DNA of 63,415 nt, filler included, from Stramenopiles sp. TOSAG23-2 (taxonomy: Eukaryota), in assembly GCA_900128395.1 (NCBI GenBank). It is 9 parts of 9 records of this genome, joined end to end, with 100 filler letters (N's around TTAATTAATTAA, not from the genome) between each part and the next. Parts side by side here need not be neighbours in the genome. Positions count along the whole stretch, not along the records: positions 11,476 to 22,814 come from LT649940.1; 8 more parts are not named here. One strand, given 5' to 3'. The position numbers and the translations under genes are program-made. Shown here piece by piece: positions 7,746 to 62,400 of the stretch. The number at the start of each line of letters is the position of its first letter. Positions within the stretch are counted from its first letter, which is position 1. The notes beneath the pieces are model-generated. The model was given only the letters and a program-made list of their open reading frames with translations, had not been told where the DNA came from and searched no databases.

Positions 7746-7906
7746 GAAAAAACTGTAAAAAAAATAATTAAAAATATATACTCGTACGAAGTTCGTATAT
7801 TTTATTTTTATATTACGAGTATATATCAGATATTCACATGTATTATCAACGATTCGTATATATATATAATAATATATGATATGAAACATCTAATGCACCT
7901 ATCAAC

Positions 7907-8080
7907 AAAAAAATAAAGAGATTTAAAATGATTAATATTGATACATCTGCTGTATGTTATGATATGATATGATAAGAAGTCGTATCATATCATACGTCAA
8001 AAAAATAAAGAGATTTAAAATGATTAATATTGATACATCTGCTGTATGTTATCATATATATGATAAGAAGTCGTATCATA
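7907..8080. repeat. Two-copy ~90-bp tandem duplication downstream of the EF-hand gene
   Basis: aaaaaataaagagatttaaaatgattaatattgatacatctgctgtatgttat occurs twice. Confidence 0.85.
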
Positions 8081-8789: not shown

Positions 8790-8980
8790 AGTGCAGAGGT
8801 TGTATGTTTCGTTCGCTCGCATTCGTATGATATCTCAATACTTCGTATATTATTTTTACGTACTACCACTACTACTACCATTGGAGTGCAGAGGTTGTAT
8901 GTTTCGTTCGCTCGCATTCGTATGATATCTCAATACTTCGTATATTATTTTTACGTACTACCACTACTACTACCATTGGA
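8790..8980. repeat. Two-copy 95-bp tandem duplication including the stop codon of the 8951-10438 gene
   Basis: Exact direct repeat gtgcagaggttgtatg...ctaccattgga. Confidence 0.9.
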
Positions 8981-11375: not shown

Positions 11376-11475
11376 NNNNNNNNNNNNNNNNNNNNNNNNN
11401 NNNNNNNNNNNNNNNNNNNTTAATTAATTAANNNNNNNNNNNNNNNNNNNNNNNNNNNNNNNNNNNNNNNNNNNN
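11376..11475. other. Artificial contig linker (also 22815-22914, 34251-34350, 45687-45786, 57115-57214, 58691-58790, 60266-60365, 61841-61940)
   Basis: Identical N44-TTAATTAATTAA-N44 blocks with stops in all frames; segments sorted by length. Confidence 0.98.
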
Positions 11476-11480
11476 CAGTC

Positions 11481-14400
11481 ATGTGGCGTATTGTTGAAGT
11501 AGTAATGGCTGCGGAAGAACCAATACATGTCGAAGCATTGGATTATTTAATACAATGTAAAGCAAATGAACGTAAAGTAGCAGTTGCTAAATTATCATTA
11601 TTATTTCCAATACGCGATCGTAAATTACATGTCTTTCATAAAAGTGTGAAAGATTGGTTGGTGGATTTGGGGCGTAAAGAAGAGATATGTTATGTGAAAT
11701 ACAAAAAGGTGCATAAATTGTTGGGAAAACGATGTAAAGAGATTTTAGAAGAGGTAAATGGAATAGAGGATCAGGATGATGCAGAAGATATGTTGGAAGC
11801 ATCAGTATATTCATTGAAACATTGTGTAACACATTTATGTAAAGGTGGTATGGTGAAAGTTGCACGTGATTTAATGTTTCAATTTGAATATTTATTGGAA
11901 CGAGCAAAATTAGGACCGGAACATATGTTGGTGAAGGATTGTTTGCGAATTGTTAGTAGTGGTGGGGAGGGTATTAGGAAGGATCGTGCGTTTCATTTGT
12001 TGTATAGTGCTTTACGATTGTCACAGAGTGGATTGAGAACGAGTCCATTGCAAATTGCTGGCCAATTGTATGGTAGATTAATGGGTTATGGGAGGGGGAA
12101 AGTTGGAGGTACTGGTGGGGGAGATGGTGGTGATGGCCAAGGAGGTAGTAATGAAGGAAAGAAGACACATGTTAAAGATATTGATGAATTGTTGCAAAAA
12201 GTTAAAGCATGGAAAGGACCAAAAGGTGGTAAAGGATGGTGGTGTCCAAAACAACAAACATATGAACCAGCTGGTGGTAAATGTTTACATACACTTGTTG
12301 GGCATAAGGGTGGTGTGAATTGTAGTGCATTTAGTAAAGATGGTACAAAGATCGTATCTGGATCGCAAGATAATACAATACGTGTATGGAATGTTGATAC
12401 TGGTGAATGTATATTAACATTGAAAAGTCATACAGGTGAAGTCAACTCAGTTGTATTTAATCATGATGGTACAAAGATTGTATCTGGATCGGATGATAAT
12501 ACAATACGTGTATGGAATGTTGATACTGGTGAATGTATATTAACATTGAAAGGTCATACAAGTTATGTCACATCAGTTGGATTTAATCATGATGGTACAA
12601 AGATTGTATCTGGATCGTATGATCAAACAATACGTGTATGGAATGTTGATACTGTTGAATGTATATTAACATTGAAAAGTCATACAGGTGGTGTCACATC
12701 AGTTGGATTTAATCATGATGGTACAAAGATCGTATCTGGATCGAATGATAATACAATACGTGTATGGAATGTTGATACTGGTGAATGTATATTAACATTG
12801 AAAGGTCATACAGGTGAAGTCAACTCAGTTGTATTTAATCATGATGGTACAAAGATTGTATCTGGATCGAATGATAAAACAATACGTGTATGGAATGTTG
12901 ATACTGGTGAATGTATATTAACATTGAAAGGTCATACAAAGGATGTCACATCAGTTGGATTTAATCATGATGGTACAAAGATCGTATCTGGATCGTATGA
13001 TGAAACAATACGTGTATGGAATGTTGATACTGGTGAATGTATATTAACATTGAAAGGTCATACATGGGGGGTCAACTCAGTTGCATTTAGTAAAGATGGT
13101 ACAAAGATTGTATCTGGATCGAATGATAAAACAATACGTGTATGGAATGTTGATACTGGTGAATGTGTGTTGACATTGAAAGGTCATACAGGTAGTGTCA
13201 ACTCAGTTGGATTTAATCATGATGGTACAAAGATTGTATCTGGATCGTCTGATAATACAATACGTGTATGGAATGTTGATACTGGTGAATGTATATTAAC
13301 ATTGAAAGGTCATACAGATTATGTCAACTCAGTTGGATTTAATCATGATGGTACAAAGATTGTATCTGGATCGGATGATAATACAATACGTGTATGGAAT
13401 GTTGATACTGGTGAATGTATATTAACATTGAAAGGTCATACACGTGATGTCATATCAGTTGGATTTAATCATGATGGTACAAAGATTGTATCTGGATCGT
13501 GGGATAATACAATACGTGTATGGAATGTTGATACTGGTGAATGTATATTAACATTGAAAGGTCATACAAAGGATGTCACATCAGTTGGATTTAATCATGA
13601 TGGTACAAAGATTGTATCTGGATCGAAGGATGAAACAATACGTGTATGGAATGTTGATACTGGTGAATGTATATTAACATTGAAAGGTCATACAGGTGAT
13701 GTCTACTCAGTTGGATTTAATCATGATGGTACAAAGATTGTATCTGGATCGGATGATAGAACAATACGTGTATGGAATGTTGATACTGGTGAATGTATAT
13801 TAACATTGAAAGGTCATACAAGTGATGTCACATCAGTTGTATTTAATCATGATGGTACAAAGATTGTATCTGGATCGATGGATGAAACAATACGTGTATG
13901 GAATGTTGATACTGGTGAATGTATATTAACATTGAAAGGTCATACACGTCATGTCACATCAGTTGTATTTAATCATGATGGTACAAAGATTGTATCTGGA
14001 TCGATGGATGAAACAATACGTGTATGGAATGTTGATACTGGTGAATGTATATTAACATTGAAAGGTCATACAGGTGAAGTCAACTCAGTTGTATTTAATC
14101 ATGATGGTACAAAGATTGTATCTGGATCGAAGGATGAAACAATACGTGTATGGAATGTTGATACTGGTGAATGTATATTAACATTGAAAGGTCATACACA
14201 TCATGTCACATCAGTTTTATTTAATCATGATGGTACAAAGATTGTATCTGGATCGAAGGATGAAACAATACGTGTATGGAATGTTGATACTGGTGAATGT
14301 ATATTAACATTGAAAGGTCATACACATCATGTCAAATCTAGTCTGCGTCGTCAGCCTCTTTCGACTCTTTCGAAAGAAAGATTCTATGTCACATCAGTTG

Positions 14401-15092
14401 GATTTAATCATGATGGTACAAAGATTGTATCTGGATCGTCTGATAATACAATACGTGTATGGAATGTTGATACTGGTGAATGTATATTAACATTGAAAGG
14501 TCATACAGGTGAAGTCAACTCAGTTGTATTTAATCATGATGGTACAAAGATTGTATCTGGATCGAAGGATGAAACAATACGTGTATGGAATGTTGATACT
14601 GGTGAATGTATATTAACATTGAAAGGTCATACAGGTTGGGTCACATCAGTTGGATTTAATCATGATGGTACAAAGATTGTATCTGGATCGGGTGATAAAA
14701 CAATACGTGTATGGAATGTTGATACTGGTGAATGTATATTAACATTGAAAGGTCATACAAAGGATGTCACATCAGTTGGATTTAATCATGATGGTACAAA
14801 GATTGTATCTGGATCGAAGGATGAAACAATACGTGTATGGAATGTTGATACTGGTGAATGTATATTCACTGGCAATCAATTAGAAGATACATTACGAAAT
14901 GAATTTAATAGAACATTACAAGTAGCACCATTAAAAGAACATTTTAATTACGATACAAAATCGATCATTGGTATGTCAGGTGAAGGTCAAATTACCAATC
15001 CAGAAATGTATATTGGTAAAAAACGTGGAGAAAAATTAGTATGTGTAATAAGAGATGAACACCGTGTACATATAATGGAACATTGTTGTTGA
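11481..15092 (+). CDS. NLR-like STAND (NACHT/NWD-type) WD40-repeat protein, 5'-partial
   Basis: Winged-helix/helical region typical of NWD proteins (VFHKSVKDWL...YSLKHCVTHL...FEYLLER) then 20 WD40 repeats; NTPase domain inferred beyond the contig edge. Confidence 0.85.
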   Translation: MWRIVEVVMAAEEPIHVEALDYLIQCKANERKVAVAKLSLLFPIRDRKLHVFHKSVKDWLVDLGRKEEICYVKYKKVHKLLGKRCKEILEEVNGIEDQDDAEDMLEASVYSLKHCVTHLCKGGMVKVARDLMFQFEYLLERAKLGPEHMLVKDCLRIVSSGGEGIRKDRAFHLLYSALRLSQSGLRTSPLQIAGQLYGRLMGYGRGKVGGTGGGDGGDGQGGSNEGKKTHVKDIDELLQKVKAWKGPKGGKGWWCPKQQTYEPAGGKCLHTLVGHKGGVNCSAFSKDGTKIVSGSQDNTIRVWNVDTGECILTLKSHTGEVNSVVFNHDGTKIVSGSDDNTIRVWNVDTGECILTLKGHTSYVTSVGFNHDGTKIVSGSYDQTIRVWNVDTVECILTLKSHTGGVTSVGFNHDGTKIVSGSNDNTIRVWNVDTGECILTLKGHTGEVNSVVFNHDGTKIVSGSNDKTIRVWNVDTGECILTLKGHTKDVTSVGFNHDGTKIVSGSYDETIRVWNVDTGECILTLKGHTWGVNSVAFSKDGTKIVSGSNDKTIRVWNVDTGECVLTLKGHTGSVNSVGFNHDGTKIVSGSSDNTIRVWNVDTGECILTLKGHTDYVNSVGFNHDGTKIVSGSDDNTIRVWNVDTGECILTLKGHTRDVISVGFNHDGTKIVSGSWDNTIRVWNVDTGECILTLKGHTKDVTSVGFNHDGTKIVSGSKDETIRVWNVDTGECILTLKGHTGDVYSVGFNHDGTKIVSGSDDRTIRVWNVDTGECILTLKGHTSDVTSVVFNHDGTKIVSGSMDETIRVWNVDTGECILTLKGHTRHVTSVVFNHDGTKIVSGSMDETIRVWNVDTGECILTLKGHTGEVNSVVFNHDGTKIVSGSKDETIRVWNVDTGECILTLKGHTHHVTSVLFNHDGTKIVSGSKDETIRVWNVDTGECILTLKGHTHHVKSSLRRQPLSTLSKERFYVTSVGFNHDGTKIVSGSSDNTIRVWNVDTGECILTLKGHTGEVNSVVFNHDGTKIVSGSKDETIRVWNVDTGECILTLKGHTGWVTSVGFNHDGTKIVSGSGDKTIRVWNVDTGECILTLKGHTKDVTSVGFNHDGTKIVSGSKDETIRVWNVDTGECIFTGNQLEDTLRNEFNRTLQVAPLKEHFNYDTKSIIGMSGEGQITNPEMYIGKKRGEKLVCVIRDEHRVHIMEHCC
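12280..14870 (+). repeat. Coding tandem array of 20 x 126-bp WD40 units
   Basis: Near-identical nucleotide units; unit 17 carries a 57-bp insertion. Confidence 0.97.
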
Positions 15093-15099
15093 AAAACAA

Positions 15100-15375
15100 T
15101 TTTGTAAAATCTATCTCTACATCAGTAGCACATAAGAAATAGAACACAAATAAAATAGTTGGAGCGTATTACAATATTTGTTTTTACCGATTCTTAGCTT
15201 TTATAAAAAGAATGTTTTTTTTTTATTAATTGGTGGTTTTGTAAAATCTATCTCTACATCAGTAGCACATAAGAAATAGAACACAAATAAAATAGTTGGA
15301 GCGTATTACAATATTTGTTTTTACCGATTCTTAGCTTTTATAAAAAGAATGTTTTTTTTTTATTAATTGGTGGTG
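15100..15375. repeat. Two-copy 137-bp tandem duplication just after the WD40 gene stop
   Basis: Direct repeat ttttgtaaaatctatctc...ttaattggtggt. Confidence 0.9.
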
Positions 15376-16162
15376 CAATAGAATCGCTGGAATGTGGTTA
15401 AGAATGTTCGTATTGTATTGCGGCGTCTAATTTCTAAAAAAGAACTAAACTGTGTTCGTCTCTCCAATATTTTTTTACCAAGATCCTCGGTATATGATAT
15501 ATGATACTTTTTATAACCACATTTAAAATATTTAAAAATTGGGTAATATATCTGGTGTAATCTGGTGTAAATGTGAAATATGATACGTATCATAACCACA
15601 AAATGTACGAATACCGTGTGGTAATTAAAATATTTTTTTTTTATTTCGGGGTGTGTAAAAAATATTTTATTTTTTTCCTTATTTTGTTAAAATACACACA
15701 TCACTTTTTAAAATATCTCTCTCTATCTACGAATGTATCTCTCTCTAATCTAATCTCTCCGGTCTCTCCCCCCCTACATTCTTTTCTTCTTCTTCTTCTT
15801 CTTCTTCTTAGTACGATTATTTCCTCCTCCATAATTATCAACATTATGACGGCTTTTTCTTTTTTTATTACTCATCATCATCATCATCATCTTCTTCCTC
15901 CTCCTCTCCTCCTCCCCTCCTCCTCCTTTTTCTTCTTGTGATCTTGCAGTGTATTATAAATTTGATTTCTTGTCTTTTCGCCATATAATAATTTGACCTC
16001 ATTTAAATATTTGTTGTCCTCTATATTATTATTATCGTCCTCCAATACATTATTATGAAATAATTGTATAACATTTAATAATAAAATCCAAATACAATAT
16101 TCATTGTACATACTTGCATCTATTAATAAAATTTTTATTTTTTCAACCCATGAATTAAAGGT

Positions 16163-18553
16163 CTATGAATTAAAGGTCTTAATTTTTTTATTTTTACTTG
16201 CAACTTCAAATTTAAATTTGTCATCTCCACGATGATTAAGATTGTTATTGATGTCCATTCCACCTATCAATGTTGGAATCTTATCATTTTTTATCCTTCT
16301 TTGTTCATGATTTATATTTGCAAGTTTAGATTCAAATTTGCCATCTCCACGATGGTTAAGACTATTATTGATGTCCTCCATTCCACCCTTTAAACGCAAT
16401 ACTACTTGCAGCGTTGATTCTTTTTTAATATGACAGTTACCAACTGTATTTGCGTCGTTTAAATCTTTTCCGCCAAATATTAACCGTTGCGCACTTGGTG
16501 GTATGCCAGTTTTATCTTGAATCAAATGTTTCAAGTCAAAGATTGTATTGCATGCAATAATGCTGTCCAACACAATGATTTCGCCATTTAATGTTTTAAC
16601 AAAAATTTGAAATGCATTGTTATGACTCCTATTTTCACAATACCCAACATCGTATTTATGGCTCTTTTGGAGTTTTTTATTGCCTTGCTTTTGAAAACTC
16701 ATATCTAATCGTAACACTAACGTTGATCTGTTTTGAATATTATACGTTGAGGTTGGTTTATCATCCTGTAACATTCTACCAGAAAACTTTAAACCGTGTT
16801 GTTGTTTCAACGGAATATCTGCTATGTCTTCAATCATCTTCTTGACTTCTTTAATTGTGGTAAAGTGTGTAACATTTCCTAATGTAATCCTTTTATTACT
16901 AGGTATTATCATTACAACAATCGAAAATGTAAATGTATTATTGCATAAACCCAACAATACATTGACTTTATGTATCGTTGCATTTATCCTTCCATTAACT
17001 TCACTTTTGTCTTTAGAAAGCTGTGATTTTTCATCATTGGATGGTGCATGTTCTAAATTATATAAATTGATAATTTCTTTTCTATAATCCTTTAATTTAT
17101 ATTTTCGCTCTAACAGTTTCTCTTTTATGTTGTCTGGGGGTGTAATAGTGATATGGTAATTTGCTTCTTTTGAAAAAACACGACCTATAAACATCTTAGG
17201 TGCTCTTACACCAACTCGTCGTACTGTAATTGCAAATGAAGAATTATGGTTTGATTTACTGCGCGTATATTCATGATACAATGGTTTTACCCCATTTAAC
17301 ATTTCTCTATCATAATCACGCCGTTCATAAATAACAAAACATACGGCAACGATATGTGAATTTCCATTGGGAAATCTGAATTCTTTTCTCTCTAATGCTT
17401 CTTCATAAATTAAATGATAGTTTTTTGGCAACGTCTCATTTTTAGATTTTCGTTGCCCATATTTTTGCGGCACAATAAATGCTATAACATCAGCATTTAA
17501 TTTTACCGTTTGACTAAAAAACGCTTCAATTAGTTTAAATGGTGGGTTTCCAATGAAAATAATACGTTTCCTTTCTTCCTTATTCATATTTTGAAAATGT
17601 TTATATTTTGAAAGGTCCCATTTTAAAAAATCTTGTTTTTCAATGTATGGTAATTTTGGATCAATGTCCATTGGTATGACATTGGCTTGATTAATACTTT
17701 TACATTGAAGCATACGATCAGAAAATGATCCATTTCCTGCACTTGGTTCAATAACAATATCCGTACTTTGAAATCCATTTATTACTGTTTCTATAATATT
17801 AAAATACGATATTGCATCTTTTTCATCTGTGTAATATTGATCTTTTTCTTTGTAGCTTTTCATTTTCAACATATCGTCTTTTGAAATACTAGACTTGTTC
17901 GCTACCGTTTCTCTGCGTTTTTTTTTGCGTTTTTTTGCACCACCCTTCAGTCTTAACATTACTTCGAGTTCTACACCTGGTTTAAGCTTACATTCAAAGA
18001 TCGTTTTTACATTATTTAATTCTTTCCCATTGTATTTTAAACGTTGGTCAGTCGATGAAATACCTATTTTATTTTCAACTTTTTGCTTTAATTCAAAAAT
18101 TAAATCGATATATGTTACCATTAAAGTAAGCTGCTTGCCACATAATGTTTTCAACGAAATTTGAAAGTTTTCTTGAAAATAATCATTGGCATAATAATCA
18201 ATAAAATCAAAATAATATGCACTTCCACAATTTAATTCACCCGCACCACTGTCATTCATAGTATGCATTTGTCCATGGCAAATATCACCTGGATATGAAA
18301 TGGATGTAGGGTTTGCTGTTGTTTTACGATCAACCATAACAAGAAGTGGTTCTTTGACTTTGTTTCCTACGTCACCCATTGTTGACATTGTTTGTTTTGC
18401 TCTTGTTTCTTCTTCTTTTTTTTTTGCTTTTCTAATAGCGTCTTCAACCATTTTATCATCCTCTCTGTCCCACTTTAGAAAATGTTGACTCCCATTTTGA
18501 CGTTTTGGCGGTTGCTTACTTGTTTCTTTTTTTCTGCCACTGTTATTCTTCAA
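16163..18553 (-). CDS. Fusion of three ubiquitin-like domains with a phage/NCLDV-type N6-adenine DNA methyltransferase
   Basis: Ubl1 aa130-205 ending LRLKGG; MTase motifs [39 protein letters not shown]; Ubl2 without GG; Ubl3 ending LRLKGG. Start uncertain (first in-frame ATG at 18451; frame open ~60 codons upstream of 18553). Confidence 0.85.
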
Positions 18554-20528
18554 TGCAATTGTAACAGTATTGTTGCAATGGATGTATCTAAATCCACCGT
18601 TGGGTGTCTGTATTAAGCAGCATTTAGCAATAGCTTGAAACGAAACCGAATTCGCTTGCGGTGCACAACCATTTTTAACTACAAAACTGTATGTGTTTTT
18701 TGGTGATAAATCTAAGTCATCATTATTATTGTATTATTAATGGTGTTAGTTGAATGTTTTGTTGTTTATATATATATATATATATATCGATGTATGAATT
18801 AGGAACATTTTCAATCGATGTAATATCGAATCATTTTGTCGTTGGTTCTATACGTATGTAGCGTCTGCGCGGACATCTATATCTACATCTATGATATATT
18901 TCTCTATTTTTATACAAATTTTAAATTTTTCAATTTTCATTTTTTTTTTCTAAATTTTTTTTCTATTTTACATTCTATACATTATTCTTTTGATATTTTG
19001 AGCTTATTATAATAAATAGGCTTGTAAGGGACCTTTTCAATCGATGTAACATTAAATCATTTTGATCTCATCGATGCGCGCACCTATACATCTATCATCT
19101 ATATATCTACATTTCTATGAATTTTTATTCAATTTTTAATTTTTTTTGTGTTGGATGATATTTCGTTAAGTATACTAAATAATTGTACTAAAATCATATA
19201 TATGCCTATATAAATACTATTTATTTCTCGTTTTTTGCTCCAAAATGTTGTTATCAGAGACGCATAGAATTGTGTTGGTGATTTGTGTTGTTTTTCTAAT
19301 CGTAAAACTATAAATCATATTTACTTCTTCCATGTGTTAAGAGGCAGAATAATTAATGTATACATACGTAGAACCATAAAATCAGTATACACGATAGATG
19401 AATCGACATTGACGGTAATATTGGTATTTTATTTTCATAAAGTATACATAGAAACTTTCGATGTATGTGTGAATTATCGCAAAGGTGTAAATGTGATAGA
19501 TATATAAGCCTATTTATATGTTATTTTGGTTACTTACCAAATGCTTCTTTTGATTTTGTTGCATTAATATTAAGTTTATTCATATTTTAATAAATATATG
19601 TATATAATTGAATAATAAGTTTGTTTATTTATTGATAAAGGTATCGTCGTTGTTTGAAATAGTAAATCTTTTTTGTTATTTTGTATTTGTTTGTATATAC
19701 TTCTGTTTGTTTAGCTATATATCTTTTGTATTCTATTGTATTTATCTATGTCGATATATAATTTTTAAAAATATATAGTGTTATTCCATGTTATTTATTT
19801 GTAATTTTGTATGTTGATGTATTGAAATAGTGAAAAAGGTTGAAAATATTAAGAGGTATTTAGTACTGTGTACCTGTTAAATTTGTTAAAAGGACTAAAA
19901 AAATGTCTCAATGAAATGATACAAGGCGTACATTTTAAAGGAAATCAGTTCTATTTCCATGCTATTTCTACAAAACACCTTAATCACCTCAATGAAAAAG
20001 AACAAAAACAAAAAGTAAGGAATTGCTATGCTATCCCCATACTATTCCAGTTAATGGACAATATTTCCCATTGAAATTTATGTGTACAGTAAATTGGATA
20101 AATAGAAATAGCAGAAAATGGATGATAGAATATTAATAGGTGCATAAAATGGATAATAGAAATATAATAGAAACTTCTTCGGAAACAATAGCGAATACAA
20201 ACAACAGGGTTTGAAAAAGTCCAAAACGTAAGATCATAATCTAAGTGCAATTTTAAGTATAATTTTCCCGTCTTTGATAGCTCTTACATTTTCGTTTTCT
20301 TGAGTTTGATGAAGATAGCAATAAGGAAGGTAATAGTATACAAAAAAGCCTAATTTAGTACAAAGTCTTCCTGTCTGAAAAAGAAAACGTAAGAACAAAA
20401 TAAAATAAAATCACCGCAAAAAGTACAGTATTACCATAAGGACAAGCGTAATTAGAGTTAGCTATTCTCGCATCGTAAGATATAGAAATCATTATACTAT
20501 TTTGCCTTTATTTAGTATAGTTTACTAC

Positions 20529-21108
20529 TCCATGTCCTAGTTGTATCATTGAAATTATTGTGAAAAAAATGGACAAATTGATAGATCGCGTTTACGTTTT
20601 TGTTGCTCCTCGTGACTCGTGACTCTACAGTAACTCGATTCTCTCGATGACAACACAACAACCAACAATCTAAATCTAGAATAAAGAAAAATGATGTGCT
20701 GCTGATGCTGATGATCTCTTCCATGTCCTAGTTGTATCATTGAAATTATTGTGAAAAAAATGGACAAATTGATAGATCGCGTTTACGTTTTTGTTGCTCC
20801 TCGTGACTCGTGACTCTACAGTAACTCGATTCTCTCGATGACAACACAACAACCAACAATCTAAATCTAGAATAAAGAAAAATGATGTGCTGCTGATGCT
20901 GATGATCTCTGCATGAGCCTCAGCTTACATTGTGAAAAAAATGGACAAATTGATAGATCGCGTTTACGTTTTTGTTGCTCCTCGTGACTCGTGACTCTAC
21001 AGTAACTCGATTCTCTCGATGACAACACAACAACCAACAATCTAAATCTAGAATATAGAAAAATGATGTGCTGCTGATGCTGATGATCTCTGCATGAGCC
21101 TCAGCTTA
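20529..21108. repeat. Three-copy tandem repeat, 181-191-bp unit
   Basis: attgtgaaaaaaatggacaaattgatagatcgcg... at 20557, 20748 and 20929. Confidence 0.92.
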
Positions 21109-21362
21109 CTGGCTTACCTTCATACACTCCATACATACCATAATAATATGTAATTCGAAGACAAAAAATACACATTTTCTTTGATATTTTTAACACATAG
21201 CGTAATAATAATCTAAATAAAGATATTATAATATATATATCACGTCCATTCATAAGATCATACATACTTTTTCATTATTACTATCTTATTTCATTTGTAA
21301 AATGAGATACAAACGTAGCGCAGAGAAGAATAGCCTACAACATAAATAATATTTAAATAATC

Positions 21363-22814
21363 ATGTTTGATGGTGATGACAACAATAATAATCTATTCGA
21401 TCATCATGGTTATGACAATCAAACCCAAAAACAGGAACCGGAGGAGTATATATTAAAGATACAAATTACAAAGATTACTCGTGCACAACTATGCTCACTG
21501 TCTCGTGATGAAAGTAATGGTAACGGAGGGAATGAGTTTGCTTTACGTGGAAATCTAGGAAGAGGTGATTATCAGATGCATGGTATATTGAGTGACTTGA
21601 ATAATAATATGCAACATGGAACAATATATTGCATTACAAATAATAAACCGCCGTACCCCCTTTCCTTACATATTGACACCTTATTACCATTTTGTACTCG
21701 TAACGATCACAAAAATGGCAAAAAGAGAAACACAAAAAGGTTTTATTTTCAGAGTCAATTCGAAGAGGATAAACCTATAAGCTTCCAGATATACGATTTT
21801 AATGACATACCCTTATCAAATCATAAATTTCAAACCTTAATTGTATATAAAGCTGAACGCTTTCAAGAATTAGGTACTAATTTAACAATCAACAACAACG
21901 GTATAGTTTCATTCCCAAATGCAAATTTAAACATAAGTAGTAGCAACATATCACAGAAATTTGATACAATACATGTAAATAATGCATATATTGCCCAAGC
22001 TATTGTTGATCAATTACAAGTATTATCTGATTCTGAATTGAAAATAATACAGACAGATACTCCATTTCCAGATGACGTTTTAGAGCAAGTATTCGGCTTA
22101 AACTTGCATATTTACAAATGGATTAGTAATGGTAATTTGGATGCTGGTTATATAGCAGAAGATTTATTGGAAATAGGTACAAACTTACAGATTCCATTAA
22201 TACACTATGAAAATCCAAGCATAAAAGTAACTCGTGAAAATATGAACGATCGTGTAATCAAAGATGAAAGTGGAATTCCGATTTTAGATAAAGATGGACA
22301 AAAACGGATTAAAAAAGGAAGACGTTTAGTTGTTAATTCCAATGCCATACGTGCATTATTAATTCGAAGTATTCAAAACCTATTCAGTAATCAAAAAGAG
22401 TTGTCCACAAAAATGAATGAACATTTGGAAGGATTAAAAATATTTTATTATGATATTTATGAAAAACATATCAAATTAGAGCAAAATATTGATGGCTTAA
22501 ATTGTCGAGTTGATGAACTAGAGCAACAACAACAAAATCAACAGAATAAGGGAGAATTAACAATAAAAAAAACGGTAGAAACGAGGTCGGGGAAACAGAT
22601 AGTCGAGTATTCAGGTGATGCAAAAAAAGTATTGCTTGCAAGGCAAGAAAGCTTCGATCGTAATAACAATAACAATAATAACAGCAACAACATTACAATA
22701 AATACCATGGGTGTCAGCGCATCATCTAAGAAAGAAAATAAGAAGAAAGAAAACAATACATTTATTATAGTAACAATTGTGATTAATAATGAAGCAATTG
22801 TTGCAATAGATTTA
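21363..22814 (+). CDS. Protein with peptidase S74 / intramolecular-chaperone autocleavage domain and coiled coil (MYRF-like or tail-fibre-like), 3'-partial
   Basis: LSDSELK (Ser-x4-Lys), LHIYKW, AGYIAEDL, LVVNSNAIRALLIRSIQNL, RVDELEQ follow the ICA consensus order. Confidence 0.7.
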
Positions 22815-23453
22815 NNNNNNNNNNNNNNNNNNNNNNNNNNNNNNNNNNNNNNNNNNNNTTAATTAATTAANNNNNNNNNNNNNNNNNNNNNNNNNNNNNN
22901 NNNNNNNNNNNNNNGTGCTATGATAGTGCTAATATCGGATATTTATATTGCCACATATCCATTAGTTTTGTAATTTCGGTCAACTGTCAATAGCTTTTTG
23001 CTCAAAATATGGTATATCAGTGCTGTGTAATGCTAATAGCTATTGCCAGTAATTTATCTGGGACTTTTCCATGCTTGGATCTTAATCTTCTGCTTAGCTG
23101 CTGAGCTGCTGAGCTGCAAAATTAAAATGTGATCACTGGAGATGATGCATGTAATAAATACTACAGGTATTATTCACTACTACTATTATTATTATTATCA
23201 ATTTGAATAAATTATTATAAAATATATCAATCAATATAGAATATATAATATTCTGAACAATGCGGAGAGAGAGAGATTAAATACATATACATATATATAT
23301 ATAAGAAAGATATATAGATATATATAGATATATATTATATTTGTGTTTCACTGTATATATATATATATATTGTAATTTATATAATATTAGTAGTTTTTGT
23401 GCTATAAATATACATAGCAACATTTATCCACCACTCCTTCTTCATTTTTAAAG

Positions 23454-33959: not shown

Positions 33960-34918
33960 AAAAAATATGATGTGTGCGTGGGCGTGTTTTTGTAGAAGGG
34001 GCGGGTAGTGTACAGTAAAATGTGTAAAAATTTGTTTTTTCATTAAAAATAGACGTATGATATGATATGAATATCTCTTTAGATAAAAATACGAAAAGCG
34101 TAACGTCTTATTTTTTTATAACACACAAACACCACACGTCCCTTTTCTAAACTCCAAACTTCGCATAATTAATTCGATGTACACATACCAGAACTCGTAC
34201 TTCTTCTTAATAGCTCCCTAAAAAAAATAATCCATATCGTACACCACTATNNNNNNNNNNNNNNNNNNNNNNNNNNNNNNNNNNNNNNNNNNNNTTAATT
34301 AATTAANNNNNNNNNNNNNNNNNNNNNNNNNNNNNNNNNNNNNNNNNNNNAAATTCTGCTATCCCTAATTTCTGAAAACGTGAAATGTCAAAATTATTTT
34401 GCCATTTGATAGGAAAAATGGTATACTAGTGGAGACTAACTTTAAAAAGGTATTTTCAATGTTTTTCCTTTGTTTTCATGTAATGAAATGAAAAATCCAT
34501 CATCATAACAAGGAATTATAAGAATTTAGGTTGAAAATGTTGAAAATGATGAAATTTTAATGAAAATATGCGAGTTTTAATGGTATGTAGTTATAAACAC
34601 GTGATTAAGGTTTTCAGCATGCTTTTTGAACAACAAAGGTTCCAAAACCATCTAATACTAATTATAGATTTTAGCAGATGATAGATGAAGTGCCCACCTG
34701 CCCACATTACAAACAACTGTATTAAAAAAATAACATCTATAAAACAACTAAGACAACAATGATGTAAAAACGATTAAATGTAAAATCAATCGTTCTGTCA
34801 ATTTCTTTTTAAATTGTTCTATATATTATTTGCTAATTCGATTAACGGTCCATTTCATATTGCCATTTTTTTTTGTATAAGAATATATATATATATCCCA
34901 CTGGTAAGAATCAAAAAC

Positions 34919-45634: not shown

Positions 45635-45786
45635 AGTTAATTGTCTTTCTTTCTATATATATATTACAATATGATAGATGATGTGTNNNNNNNNNNNNNN
45701 NNNNNNNNNNNNNNNNNNNNNNNNNNNNNNTTAATTAATTAANNNNNNNNNNNNNNNNNNNNNNNNNNNNNNNNNNNNNNNNNNNN

Positions 45787-55566: not shown

Positions 55567-56055
55567 TCACATCTAGAAAATATATATCTATATCTGTTCA
55601 CATCCAAAAAAGAAACTATATATCGATCTGTCCACACTGTTCACCTCCAAAAAAACTATATATTGATCTGTTCACCTCCAAATATATATATATATATTCA
55701 CAACGGCAATCGTCGTCTACTGATGTGTCTCTTGCTCAGAATTCCGGGGTACTGTCTATGGGCTGTAATTATGCAGAAAGGTGGTACAAAGTATAGTTTT
55801 ACAATGTAGAAAGGTGATACAAAGTAATTTTACAGTGTACTTTGGCCTACGAAGGGACGACCGCGGGTAGCTACAGGACAGTATCAATCTCGTCTGTATT
55901 GGTACATCTTGTATCTATCTATCTATCTACCTGTCTGTCTGTCTGTCATGTAGATCCATTTTTGAAAAGGTACATATATATGTACATATTATTTGAAATT
56001 ATTTATATGAAATTTATATGAAATTTATTATAAAATGGTGTCTGATGTGTGTAGT

Positions 56056-56370
56056 AAAACTGTAGAATCGTAGTCTGAACCTTTCATTCCTCCTATATAT
56101 AAAGTTGACTGTGACAAAATTGGCATAGAATAGCATATAAATAACATTAAGCTTATTCATAAAACTGTAAAATCGTAGTCTGAACCTTTCATTCCTCCTA
56201 TATATAAGTTGACCGTGACAAAATTAAAATTTGGCATAGAATAGCATAGAAATAACATTAAGCTTATTCATAAAACTGTAGAATCGTAGTCTAAATATTT
56301 CATTCCTCCTATATATAATAGGTTATAAATGGCATATAAATAATTAAATAACATTAAGCTTATTCATATG
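56056..56370. repeat. Three-copy tandem repeat, ~105-112-bp unit
   Basis: taaaactgtagaatcgtagtct...ttcattcctcctatata...aataacattaagcttattcata repeated. Confidence 0.88.
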
Positions 56371-57114: not shown

Positions 57115-57214
57115 NNNNNNNNNNNNNNNNNNNNNNNNNNNNNNNNNNNNNNNNNNNNTTAATTAATTAANNNNNNNNNNNNNNNNNNNNNNNNNNNNNN
57201 NNNNNNNNNNNNNN

Positions 57215-57983: not shown

Positions 57984-58790
57984 AAAGTAAATTATATATT
58001 TTATATAAATATATATATCTATGCGTATATCTTACACAAATAAAATAACATTAAATAGATATATTAATAGGTAATTGTACTTATAAGTATACAAATTACA
58101 TTATATATTCTTTTGACTTTTGACTTTTCAATAAGGAAGGCTGGAAGGCCAGAAGGCAACAGAAGGCACGTTTTTTGCTGTTCTATTTTCCTTTTCTATC
58201 TTTCTGTGCACGTATGCAAATCCACTATTCCACATAATCCACTATGCTATTCGTACCGTAGCCGAAGCGTTTTCAAGTCCTTTCTTAACGATTTCAGAAA
58301 AAATTTCAGAAATTTTTCCACACTTTGTGTAACATAAGATCAATAAATTTCATCCAGTTCTCATCTTCACCAAAATTGACCAAACTTATTACATCTCATC
58401 ACTTTACTTACTCATTAATGAACAATTAATACATGAATTATAATTATTTAGTATATTTTCGTATTCGTATCAAAAAACGTGCCTGATTTAAGGTCAATAT
58501 AACTTCCAGTCGAAGAACGATCGATCGATATTTTATTATTATTATCAAAATAACACTACTAACAATGGGGAAAACTCCAACAACAAATTTTGATGCACGT
58601 ACACATTTACATTGACTATCATCCCGATATAATTTTTACTGTGCCGGCGAGTCGTACATTTTCGGTACAAATTGTTTATTATACTTAGACNNNNNNNNNN
58701 NNNNNNNNNNNNNNNNNNNNNNNNNNNNNNNNNNTTAATTAATTAANNNNNNNNNNNNNNNNNNNNNNNNNNNNNNNNNNNNNNNNNNNN

Positions 58791-60265: not shown

Positions 60266-60365
60266 NNNNNNNNNNNNNNNNNNNNNNNNNNNNNNNNNNN
60301 NNNNNNNNNTTAATTAATTAANNNNNNNNNNNNNNNNNNNNNNNNNNNNNNNNNNNNNNNNNNNN

Positions 60366-61113: not shown

Positions 61114-62400
61114 CTTTTCTCTTTATGCTTTGTATTTTTTTGTTCACGGTTGCGGCTACTGTATGAAAGTAACGCAAGACAACAGAAATGCAAATCCGTT
61201 CGCATATTTTATATAATACCAACGTATATCCCGCATATACATGTGCACTCCTACATGTGCACTCCCAGCACTCATGTTTTTCTAATATATATGCATGTAC
61301 ATATATATATTTCGAAATTATATTGTTTTTCACTGACCCGGCAATTAATTGGACAATTTTCGGTATTTATAATTTTTCAGTATACTTAAACACTATACTT
61401 TACCCATCAAATACACAAATTAATCCGAAACCCAAAACTCACGCCAACACGATATATACACCATTGAAAACTTGAAAACTTGAAAAACCGATTAAATTAT
61501 GTATTTGATAGGTAAATATACCGTTTAAGTATACTAAAAAACATTTATTCACACGAAAATTGTCACAATAATGGCCGATGAAAGGAGAAAGGAGTTTGAT
61601 CGAGTTTGGCATGGAAATAGCATTGTAATATAGTTGTGTAGTAGGGTTTCATATGTTCCGAAATTGATCGAAATGATAGTCGCGGAACCACACGACGCTT
61701 AGCTAAATAGATGCGATAGAAATAGTATTTTGTTCCATTTATGAAATATTTCGGGAGTATAGAAATAAAAAAAAAAAGAAGTGCAAAAGCAACAACCGTT
61801 ATCCAAAAAATAAATTGAAATAAATATATATATATACCTANNNNNNNNNNNNNNNNNNNNNNNNNNNNNNNNNNNNNNNNNNNNTTAATTAATTAANNNN
61901 NNNNNNNNNNNNNNNNNNNNNNNNNNNNNNNNNNNNNNNNATATATATATAAGATGCAAATTGTTAAATATAAATATGTGAATGATTTTTCTGGTGAATA
62001 AAATTGTAAGGAGTTAAAATCTCTTTTACGACATTCTATAAACTTCTACACATATGTCAATATATAATTTATATTTCTTTTATCCTGATTTATTCATTTT
62101 TACCTGTACATTTTGATTTTTACATGCGTAAAACGCCGCGGTTTATAACCCTAATCCCACCACACATGGTTTAACGGAATGGCTTTAGTGTACGAAATGA
62201 TAGGGGAAATCCATACTTATGTGGAACCAATCACCACCAAATTGATCACATCCAAAAAGCCTTTCGCGTGCTTTCCAGCTTTCCATCAGCTAGCTAGTCG
62301 AGACCCTCGCCTCTTCGCTTACTGGCTTACCATCTGTATTGACTTTCCAGCCTTTTCCAGCACTCCAGCACTCACTATAACTACCACTGGTGGTAATTAC

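Follow-up and report, generated by a model that had tools for sequence, protein, structure and literature searches.

Among eukaryotes, the diversification of receptors through shuffled repeats has been studied best in the self/non-self receptors of fungi. The gene compared with them here lies in a stretch of DNA of 63,415 nucleotides (nt), filler included, from Stramenopiles sp. TOSAG23-2 (GenBank assembly GCA_900128395.1), a stretch referred to throughout, at its full length, as the window, where an open reading frame (ORF) at 11478-15092 on the plus strand encodes an array of WD40 repeats. The array is real and is that of a non-fungal NLR-like receptor with repeat hypervariability of the fungal style, and the gene probably encodes the sensing, C-terminal half of a STAND NTPase of the NLR-like type, belonging to a marine eukaryote, with hypervariability at the tops of the propeller blades.

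The closest described counterparts are the HNWD proteins of Podospora anserina (het-d, het-e as well as het-r), which are built in the order HET-NACHT-WD40 and which have in common with the window gene WD40 units of 42 residues and very high internal identity. In HNWD units codons 7, 9, 25 and 27 are positively selected; they flank the conserved codons 8 and 26 and are found in the loop between strands d and a (the d-a loop) and in the b-c turn (PMC1805685, in part; the same words mark below each paper that is drawn on for a portion of its text). Repeat-induced point mutation has been proposed as the source of mutation in Podospora and is described there as specific to fungi (PMC1805685, in part). 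A second fungal group, the HeLo-like-NACHT-WD40 NLRs, shares with the family of the window gene a three-part layout, with a helical domain that has been proposed to be pore-forming (Dyrka et al. 2014, PMC4986451, in part). Of the WD repeats of fungal NLRs, 21.6% are highly internally conserved, and the maximum of 21 repeats is enough for a triple propeller (PMC4986451, in part). The window family differs from this group in its lineage, in an extra ubiquitin-like domain, in a start of the form M-G-x-x-x-S/T and in a helical domain that matches MLKL_N.

Highly repetitive WD40 proteins of protists are themselves already known, having been catalogued in 2017 (PMC5587647, in part). Hotspot sites remain diverse in these Highly-Repetitive WD40 proteins (Hu et al. 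2017, PMC5587647, in part), and the supplementary list includes the protist organism codes AURAN, CHOCR, GUITH, EMIHU and PARTE (PMC5587647, in part). The portion of the catalogue drawn on here is without NLR context, codon-level analysis or protist population data, and one of its supplementary files holds no occurrence of the word "NACHT" (PMC5587647, in part). Finally, the executioners of the MLKL, plant MLKL and RPW8 types resemble the window family in the position and length of a helical module, but the module is here fused to a NACHT-WD40 receptor rather than to a pseudokinase, and its membrane activity is a prediction.

The repeat array and its variable codons

The contig that bears the gene occupies 11476-22814. 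Its ORF is open from 11478, with a first ATG at 11481 and a stop codon at 15090-15092, and it begins at the contig edge (11476), such that the gene is 5'-truncated, the window DNA before 11376 is unrelated to it, and its STAND NTPase would lie outside the window, as the contig begins within the gene. The truncated start (11478..12299, plus strand) comprises, by alignment to protein P0002 and locus L002, the winged-helix and helical arm that comes after NACHT in relatives, then a linker rich in Gly and finally a pre-array strand (motif G-K-C-L-H-T-L-V) resembling the d strand of a blade. This is followed by the WD40 array of 20 units of 126 base pairs (bp), or 42 codons, each (12300..14876, plus strand), as delimited by Tandem Repeats Finder, in-frame reading and Pfam, and by a conserved C-terminal tail with the stop codon (14877..15092, plus strand), which is shared by P0003, L001 and L045. 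Tandem Repeats Finder places the 126-bp period in two stretches, 12339-14338 with 15.9 copies and 93% matches, and 14388-14866 with 3.8 copies, whilst Pfam recognises 20 WD40 stretches in the ORF (expectation value, E, of 6.6e-250).

With the register of the unit set to start at G-H-T, the Asp-His-Ser-Trp tetrad is intact, and codons 2 (His), 20 (Ser), 24 (Asp) and 30 (Trp) are each represented by one codon type. Internal identity far above the 0.7 cut-off, together with an intact tetrad in every blade, places the array among the Highly-Repetitive WD40 proteins. Divergence from the scaffold is found in units 1 and 7 and at the end of unit 20, and the counts of nucleotide columns, identity and pN/pS (nonsynonymous over synonymous change per site) given below are for the 17 interior units, with units 1, 7 and 20 excluded.

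Where, within so uniform a scaffold, does the variation lie? The hypervariable codons of the unit are numbers 4, 5, 7, 10, 23 and 25, and of the 20 variable columns 17 fall on the 18 bases of these six codons and 3 on the 108 bases elsewhere (Fisher 4e-17). As the six codons were chosen post hoc, a random-placement control was run, in which 20 columns were placed randomly 200,000 times and the best six codons held a mean of 8.9 and a maximum of 14. Mean pairwise identity is 58% within the six codons as against 99.5% outside them, and pN/pS is 3.7 within, where pS rests on 3.5 synonymous sites, as against 0.47 outside. Over all 20 units the six codons comprise 39 codon types that encode 37 residue types, and differences of two or three bases are frequent.

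A first-pass annotation of this DNA had described 20 near-identical 126-bp units with six variable codons, and the description stands in its particulars: the residue pairs that it listed after G-H-T are all correct, as are the V/G/A/L site and the series Q/D/Y/N/S/W/K/M/G before and N/Q/K/E/R after the Asp, whilst one way of repairing unit 17 adds a K to its N/T/I/Y site. The reuse of front cassettes with different back cassettes that it reported is also present, with GE-N-V, which occurs four times in the array, joined to DN, NK and KE, and KD-T-G joined to YE and KE. The annotation passed over the insertion in unit 17 (see below), the linkers that join the contigs, and the start of the ORF at a contig edge.

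Near-identical units need not, in themselves, belong to an immune receptor. The protein could be a WD40 scaffold without immune role, whether a STAND protein or an adaptor engaged in housekeeping or signalling, in which the repeats have expanded very recently and the variable sites are merely tolerant of change. Such an account can draw on the cataloguing of highly repetitive protist WD40 proteins without an immune link (PMC5587647, in part), and on the putative nature of the window gene's function. However, recent expansion combined with tolerance predicts low diversity throughout, and what is observed is the step from 99.5% to 58% identity, multi-base differences and changes that almost only affect amino acids. 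Since, in addition, the variable positions are canonical binding hotspots, and relatives join the array to NACHT and to MLKL_N-like or TIR modules (both described below), a scaffold of this kind is unlikely.

The variation might, instead of reflecting selection on recombining repeats, be written by targeted mutagenesis, for example by a diversity-generating retroelement (DGR) of the kind that serves STAND sensors of bacteria. Putative sensors diversified by DGRs are known in multicellular bacteria (PMC10907252, in part), and the boundaries of the variable codons are sharp enough here to look "written". Yet the variation extends beyond adenines to all base types, with codon 4 (majority GGT) varying at all three positions, and it affects twenty units as opposed to one variable region with a template. 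No reverse transcriptase is present among the Pfam matches of the contig's ORFs, such that neither the adenine-specific variation nor the linked reverse transcriptase of a DGR-diversified sensor was found, and the Podospora pattern has been explained without a dedicated mutagenesis mechanism (PMC1805685, in part). Targeted mutagenesis is thus the least credible of the explanations considered.

One unit departs from the common length. Unit 17 has a 57-nt in-frame insertion in its d-a loop (14336..14392, plus strand), the placement of which is ambiguous within 14328-14397 and which contains the 12-base palindrome TCTTTCGAAAGA. No counterpart of it was found among the other units or loci, and the bins left uncovered by run contigs include the start of the insertion. 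An intron is conceivable in that the placement 14341-14397 has GT..AG ends, but this placement gives a worse unit, with 9 rather than 6 mismatches to the consensus. As to the number of blades, the 20 units and tail of the window (12300-15089), and the six units and tail of L001 (L001:6820-7700), would make 21 and 7 blades if the pre-array strand and the tail complete one; both are multiples of seven, which is given as a remark only. The idea that the tail is a degenerate 21st blade was rejected, its alignment score of 28 against 22 +/- 4.3 for shuffles not being significant.

Top-face residues and upstream domains

The hotspots on the top face of WD40 propellers can be located by sequence, where R1 and R2 are enclosed by a pair of V/L/I residues as strand a begins (PMC3419727, in part), R1-2 is two residues before R1, and D-1 is directly before the tetrad Asp (PMC3419727, in part). 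When the (V/L/I)-R1-R2-(V/L/I) rule is applied to V6-x7-S8-V9 and S22-x23-D24, R1 becomes position 7, R1-2 position 5 and D-1 position 23, with positions 4 (d-a loop) and 25 (b-c turn) next to hotspots. By these rules five of the six variable sites would be in the d-a loop and b-c turn, three of them at published hotspots, in keeping with the selected surface positions that the first-pass annotation had named as the mark of the HNWD receptors; judged from sequence, the variable positions correspond to the canonical WD40 top face. The sixth, position 10, is in strand a before its terminal aromatic and holds mostly small, hydrophobic residues, and it may be linked rather than selected because it travels together with position 7, as in the four GE-N-V cassettes. 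The best match to units 2-8 in the PDB is the repetitive propeller 2ymu_A (E 2.5e-194), and an AlphaFold model of the WD region, made from a single sequence, served as a rough strand map only.

The counterparts of the selected HNWD codons 7, 9, 25 and 27 are, in the window unit, positions 5, 7, 23 and 25, which flank V6 and D24 with identical spacing. In both systems, therefore, variation flanks a conserved Val in the d-a loop and a conserved Asp in the b-c turn, the difference being that positions 4 and 10 are also variable in the window array.

The domains that precede the repeats are seen in relatives. The 272 pre-array residues match 12 proteins, among them P0002, to residues 680-973 of which they align with 75% identity, and at the DNA level locus L002 is 93.9% identical to the contig, beginning with the contig's first base. 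Immediately upstream of the matching arm there is an NPHP3_N/NACHT P-loop NTPase (E 6e-28 in P0002, 1e-25 in L002), and NPHP3_N, in the same range of E (6e-28 to 1e-25), is found with NACHT in P0002, P0005, P0004 and L002. The motifs in L002 are a Walker A sequence, G-A-G-M-G-K-T-G, and an acidic Walker-B-like sequence, L-I-D-A-L-D-E-C, and its single ORF runs from an M-G-G-G-A-S-K start through a ubiquitin-like part, a helical domain, NPHP3_N/NACHT and the arm to the WD units. With NPHP3_N (E 1e-25) and five WD40 stretches in one ORF, L002 displays the three-part NLR-like layout for the family; the portion of it held by the window gene is the post-NACHT arm and the repeats. The placing of NACHT upstream of the repeats is thus a likeness to HNWD that is seen here in relatives 75-94% identical.

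At the N-terminus, all members with a visible start begin M-G-x-x-x-S/T, a predicted N-myristoylation context, except that P0002 has Ala there. An AlphaFold model of the L002 N-terminus from 9 sequences is usable for residues 14-95 only; this ubiquitin-like part reaches a predicted local distance difference test (pLDDT) score of ~80, and its best Foldseek matches are ubiquitin-like proteins (E 3e-3, template-modelling score 0.6-0.7), whereas the helical part of the model, with a mean pLDDT of 50.2 for the whole, gave no Foldseek match. For this helical part the evidence comes from sequence. In P0155, which is 47% identical to L002 over 601 residues, MLKL_N is found just before NACHT at 35.9 bits (cut-off 27, E 6e-9), along with a weak RPW8 match, and this stretch is co-linear with residues 200-353 of L002. 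The five best sequence matches of the L002 N-terminus in the PDB are MLKL four-helix bundles (E 0.11-0.28), and in the closest named Atlas clusters MLKL_N is assigned, with scores of 0.92-0.94, to 22-36% of members. Pfam scans of P0002, P0005, P0004, L001 and L002 returned no HET domain, and no HeLo family appeared in Pfam scans of the relatives' N-terminal parts; a ubiquitin-like plus MLKL_N-like N-terminus without HET domain accordingly distinguishes these relatives from HNWD. Searched against 1.84 billion representatives, the N-terminal module gave 41 matches at E <= 1e-3, mostly fragments, and is therefore rare and lineage-restricted. Other relatives vary the theme, P0008 having the precomputed families TIR_2 and WD40, and P0003 the same architecture and tail with diverged WD repeats.

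The nearest named relative of the NACHT region is a EukProt protein of a stramenopile of MAST-4 (marine stramenopile group 4), with E 3e-131; further away are coral proteins (~38% identity), bacterial TIR-NACHT-TPR proteins (~30%) and fungal proteins named HET-E-1 (28-31%). By identity, no tree having been made, descent hence points to marine proteins and MAST-4 and not to the fungal proteins. The first-pass annotation had called the array HET-E-like, and this fits its behaviour, that is the unit pattern and the positions of the selected codons, but not its descent, given that in the relatives the NACHT region is only 28-31% identical to those fungal proteins and no HET domain was found.

A further likeness to HNWD is the presence of more than one family member in the same region of the genome. 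A second member begins 7.6 kb downstream of the gene on the same contig, where the end of the contig cuts it after its first 36 codons (22707..22814, plus strand); these contain an M-G-x-x-x-S start and the first part of the ubiquitin-like domain, and over 45 bases they are 91% identical in nucleotide sequence to the L002 gene at its N-terminus. In frame with the 22707 start, and with no stop between, is a 448-codon ORF within 21363-22814 (plus strand) that is rich in Asn runs and has a weak Peptidase_S74 match (E 3e-4). Whether as a separate gene upstream, as an extension of the N-terminus or as a frame open by chance, this ORF could be explained in three ways.

Environmental recurrence and assembly support

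A scan of metagenome contigs returned 68 loci, and 9 independent ones among these hold 33 more units, which depart from the window scaffold by no more than 16 mismatches per 108 bases and bear different residues at the variable positions. Pooled with those of the window they give 51 distinct six-residue combinations among 53 units. Entropy amounts to 1.8-3.6 bits for the six variable positions, and no other position exceeds 1.33 bits, codons 3 and 42 being the next most variable. Synonymous variants are specific to arrays. For instance, Ile18 is encoded by ATT in 17 of 20 window units, by ATC in 5 of 6 L004 units and by ATA in 5 of 6 L006 units, and for Val9, encoded by GTT or GTG, the GTG form accounts for 4 of the 6 units of L006 and all 3 of those of L028; homogenisation within arrays would produce such variants. 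In L001 six units stand between the shared arm and the shared tail. The L001 reading frame has an in-frame TAG within one WD unit (L001:7072-7197), and past the tail it continues without a stop into about eight ankyrin repeats (L001:7702-8787; Ank_2, E 6e-57) that are near-identical with few variable positions. The contig downstream of the gene has no DNA match among the 68 loci except for the tail of L045, and with no synteny found L001 and L002 are indistinguishable as alleles, orthologues or paralogues.

About a fifth of the words sampled from the stretch (share 0.22-0.31) recur in 12 metagenome runs of 9 studies, labelled marine, seawater or aquatic or without a label, one of which, X3, was also compared as contigs; five further RNA runs, with shares of 0.13-0.18, are not counted as evidence. 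The other contigs of the window encode eukaryote-type proteins, and these, the MAST-4 relative and the word shares in marine metagenomes together make likely the "protist" of the first-pass annotation, whilst its "flagellate" is conjecture. The host is a marine, probably unicellular, eukaryote without hyphal fusion, in which it differs from Podospora. In the polyadenylated (polyA) metatranscriptome X16, contigs of at least 95% identity over 11476-12056 give a hint of transcription of the window gene or a close relative.

For the assembly itself four public runs were compared, all as contigs built with k=31, of which X1 and X2 come from one coded organism. Contigs of these two match 11639-12365, exactly in X2 and with one differing letter in X1, and the 3' flank is matched over 14895-15400 (X1) and 15003-15400 (X2), apart from one 137-bp copy of a duplication. 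The array in between is covered in patches, and as no contig bridges two units their order and number are not independently supported. Over 11476-11668 there are 8 mismatches between X1 and the window and 4 between X2 and the window, 4 of them common to both, which suggests alleles, paralogues or a chimeric start of the contig.

Could the array, or its cassette combinations, then be an artefact of assembly or amplification, a short-read mosaic of loci, cells or chimeric products? The assembly is fragmented and the contig is cut at the 5' end of the gene, Illumina assemblies misjudge the number and order of units in arrays of this kind (PMC12222747, in part), the palindrome-bearing insert is unexplained, and the differences from X1 and X2 just described can be added to the list. 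Against this, an artefact could not generate amino-acid diversity at specific sites on an invariant scaffold, and the front-to-back cassettes within a unit span 66 bases and the back-to-next-front ones 90, both inside one read if the library consists of 100-150-base reads. The same pattern also recurs in the 9 independent metagenome contigs, and the words of the stretch recur in the 12 runs noted above. An artefactual origin is on these grounds very improbable, and it would threaten the count and order of the units and not the phenomenon.

Several features around the gene may be recorded here. The window consists of nine contigs, five of ~11.3 kb and four of ~1.48 kb, separated by eight artificial filler linkers, each N44-TTAATTAATTAA-N44 (11376-11475, 22815-22914, 34251-34350, 45687-45786, 57115-57214, 58691-58790, 60266-60365 and 61841-61940), and contigs that are side by side are as a consequence not genomic neighbours. 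A perfect tandem duplication is found right after the stop codon of the gene (15100-15374), which is in single copy in the X1 and X2 contigs, where the joint skips 137 bases, although collapse at k=31 could also explain this. It is one of several intergenic tandem duplications of 92-191 bp, with 2-3 copies and 90-100% identity (15100-15374, 7906-8080, 8790-8980, 20529-21109 and 56055-56318). On the minus strand, 16163-18451 encodes a protein of 762 residues in which Pfam recognises three ubiquitin-family stretches (E 5e-43); it finds no match in its central region, the motifs of which (E-P-S-A-G-N-G-S-F and N-P-P-F) presumably resemble those of an S-adenosylmethionine-dependent N6-adenine methyltransferase. 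A thymidylate synthase on another contig (46978-47958, minus strand) has as its best relatives stand-alone unnamed marine proteins of ~275 residues, with up to 91% identity, and as a taxonomic marker it thus pointed to no taxon. An Rfam scan of the window gave no match, and the matches from PADLOC were driven by WD40 alone.

A possible receptor mechanism and its meaning

The reading of the gene as the sensor half of an NLR-like receptor has to be set against a number of points. The window gene itself comes without NTPase and effector, so that its architecture is borrowed from relatives, and its pre-array part alone scores below threshold in Pfam (HTH_TANC1 E 0.0048, APAF1_C E 0.16). MLKL_N too is below threshold in P0005, L002, L001 and P0283 (21-23 bits, cut-off 27), and a profile of 9 family members searched against PDB sequences finds no MLKL at E <= 1, with WD40 matches dominating. 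Both AlphaFold models are poor, with mean pLDDT values of 51.8 (WD region) and 50.2 (L002 N-terminus), as a consequence of which the placement on the top face depends on sequence rules and not on a model. The few synonymous sites behind pS have been mentioned, and formal site tests make assumptions that recombination among units violates; it is by counting that amino-acid change was shown to be in excess. Run contigs are too short to bridge the units, whose order and number (20) thus come from the assembly, and Illumina assemblies of such arrays are unreliable in both respects (PMC12222747, in part). The 57-nt insertion in unit 17, together with the TAG in one L001 unit, means that some copies may be defective or mis-assembled. 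Lastly, the function of the gene is putative, and its expression is no firmer than the hint from X16.

How might a receptor of this family work? Its full architecture, as seen in close relatives, comprises an N-terminal Gly, a ubiquitin-like beta-grasp, an MLKL_N-like helical bundle, an NPHP3_N-type NACHT, a winged-helix/helical arm, the WD40 array and a short tail. Recombination between units, by unequal crossing-over or gene conversion, combined with purifying selection on the scaffold, would keep the DNA of the array near-identical, whilst diversity would be retained at five residues per blade, in two loops of the top (ligand-binding) face, plus one linked residue of strand a. Each blade would in this way present a distinct small binding patch. 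Binding of a non-self or modified-self ligand may then free the NACHT domain for oligomerisation, and this in turn would cluster the N-terminal MLKL-like domain, with membrane damage and cell death or arrest as the predicted outcome. The repeat anatomy, the variability at specific sites, its correspondence to the top face, the domains upstream in relatives and the recurrence in environmental DNA are observations, whereas the binding of a ligand, oligomerisation, cell death and the sort of non-self to which the receptor responds are all steps that we infer, as are the non-self recognition and repeat shuffling put forward by the first-pass annotation. More tentatively still, and as a possibility that we do not favour strongly, uncultured marine heterotrophic protists related to MAST-4 may maintain a population-wide, combinatorially shuffled repertoire of NLRs, with a five-residue patch per blade and an MLKL-like executioner, for suicide or arrest against viruses or parasites, a strategy that would be independent of that of fungi.

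A literature search at the level of listings and abstracts returned no description of this pattern in protists. The occurrence of the same codon-level signature in a non-fungal marine eukaryote suggests that the strategy is either much older than the fungal receptors or convergent with them, and that single-celled eukaryotes diversify immune-type receptors as fungi do. As the units are spread through ocean metagenomes there is a route to their study that is independent of culture, in which marine metagenomes sequenced with long reads, and single-cell genomes, could yield the repertoires of units for comparison with the viruses that co-occur. The family also offers a candidate module for cell death in a unicellular eukaryote, leading from a NACHT receptor to an MLKL-like executioner, and such a module would bear on why single cells retain suicide pathways.

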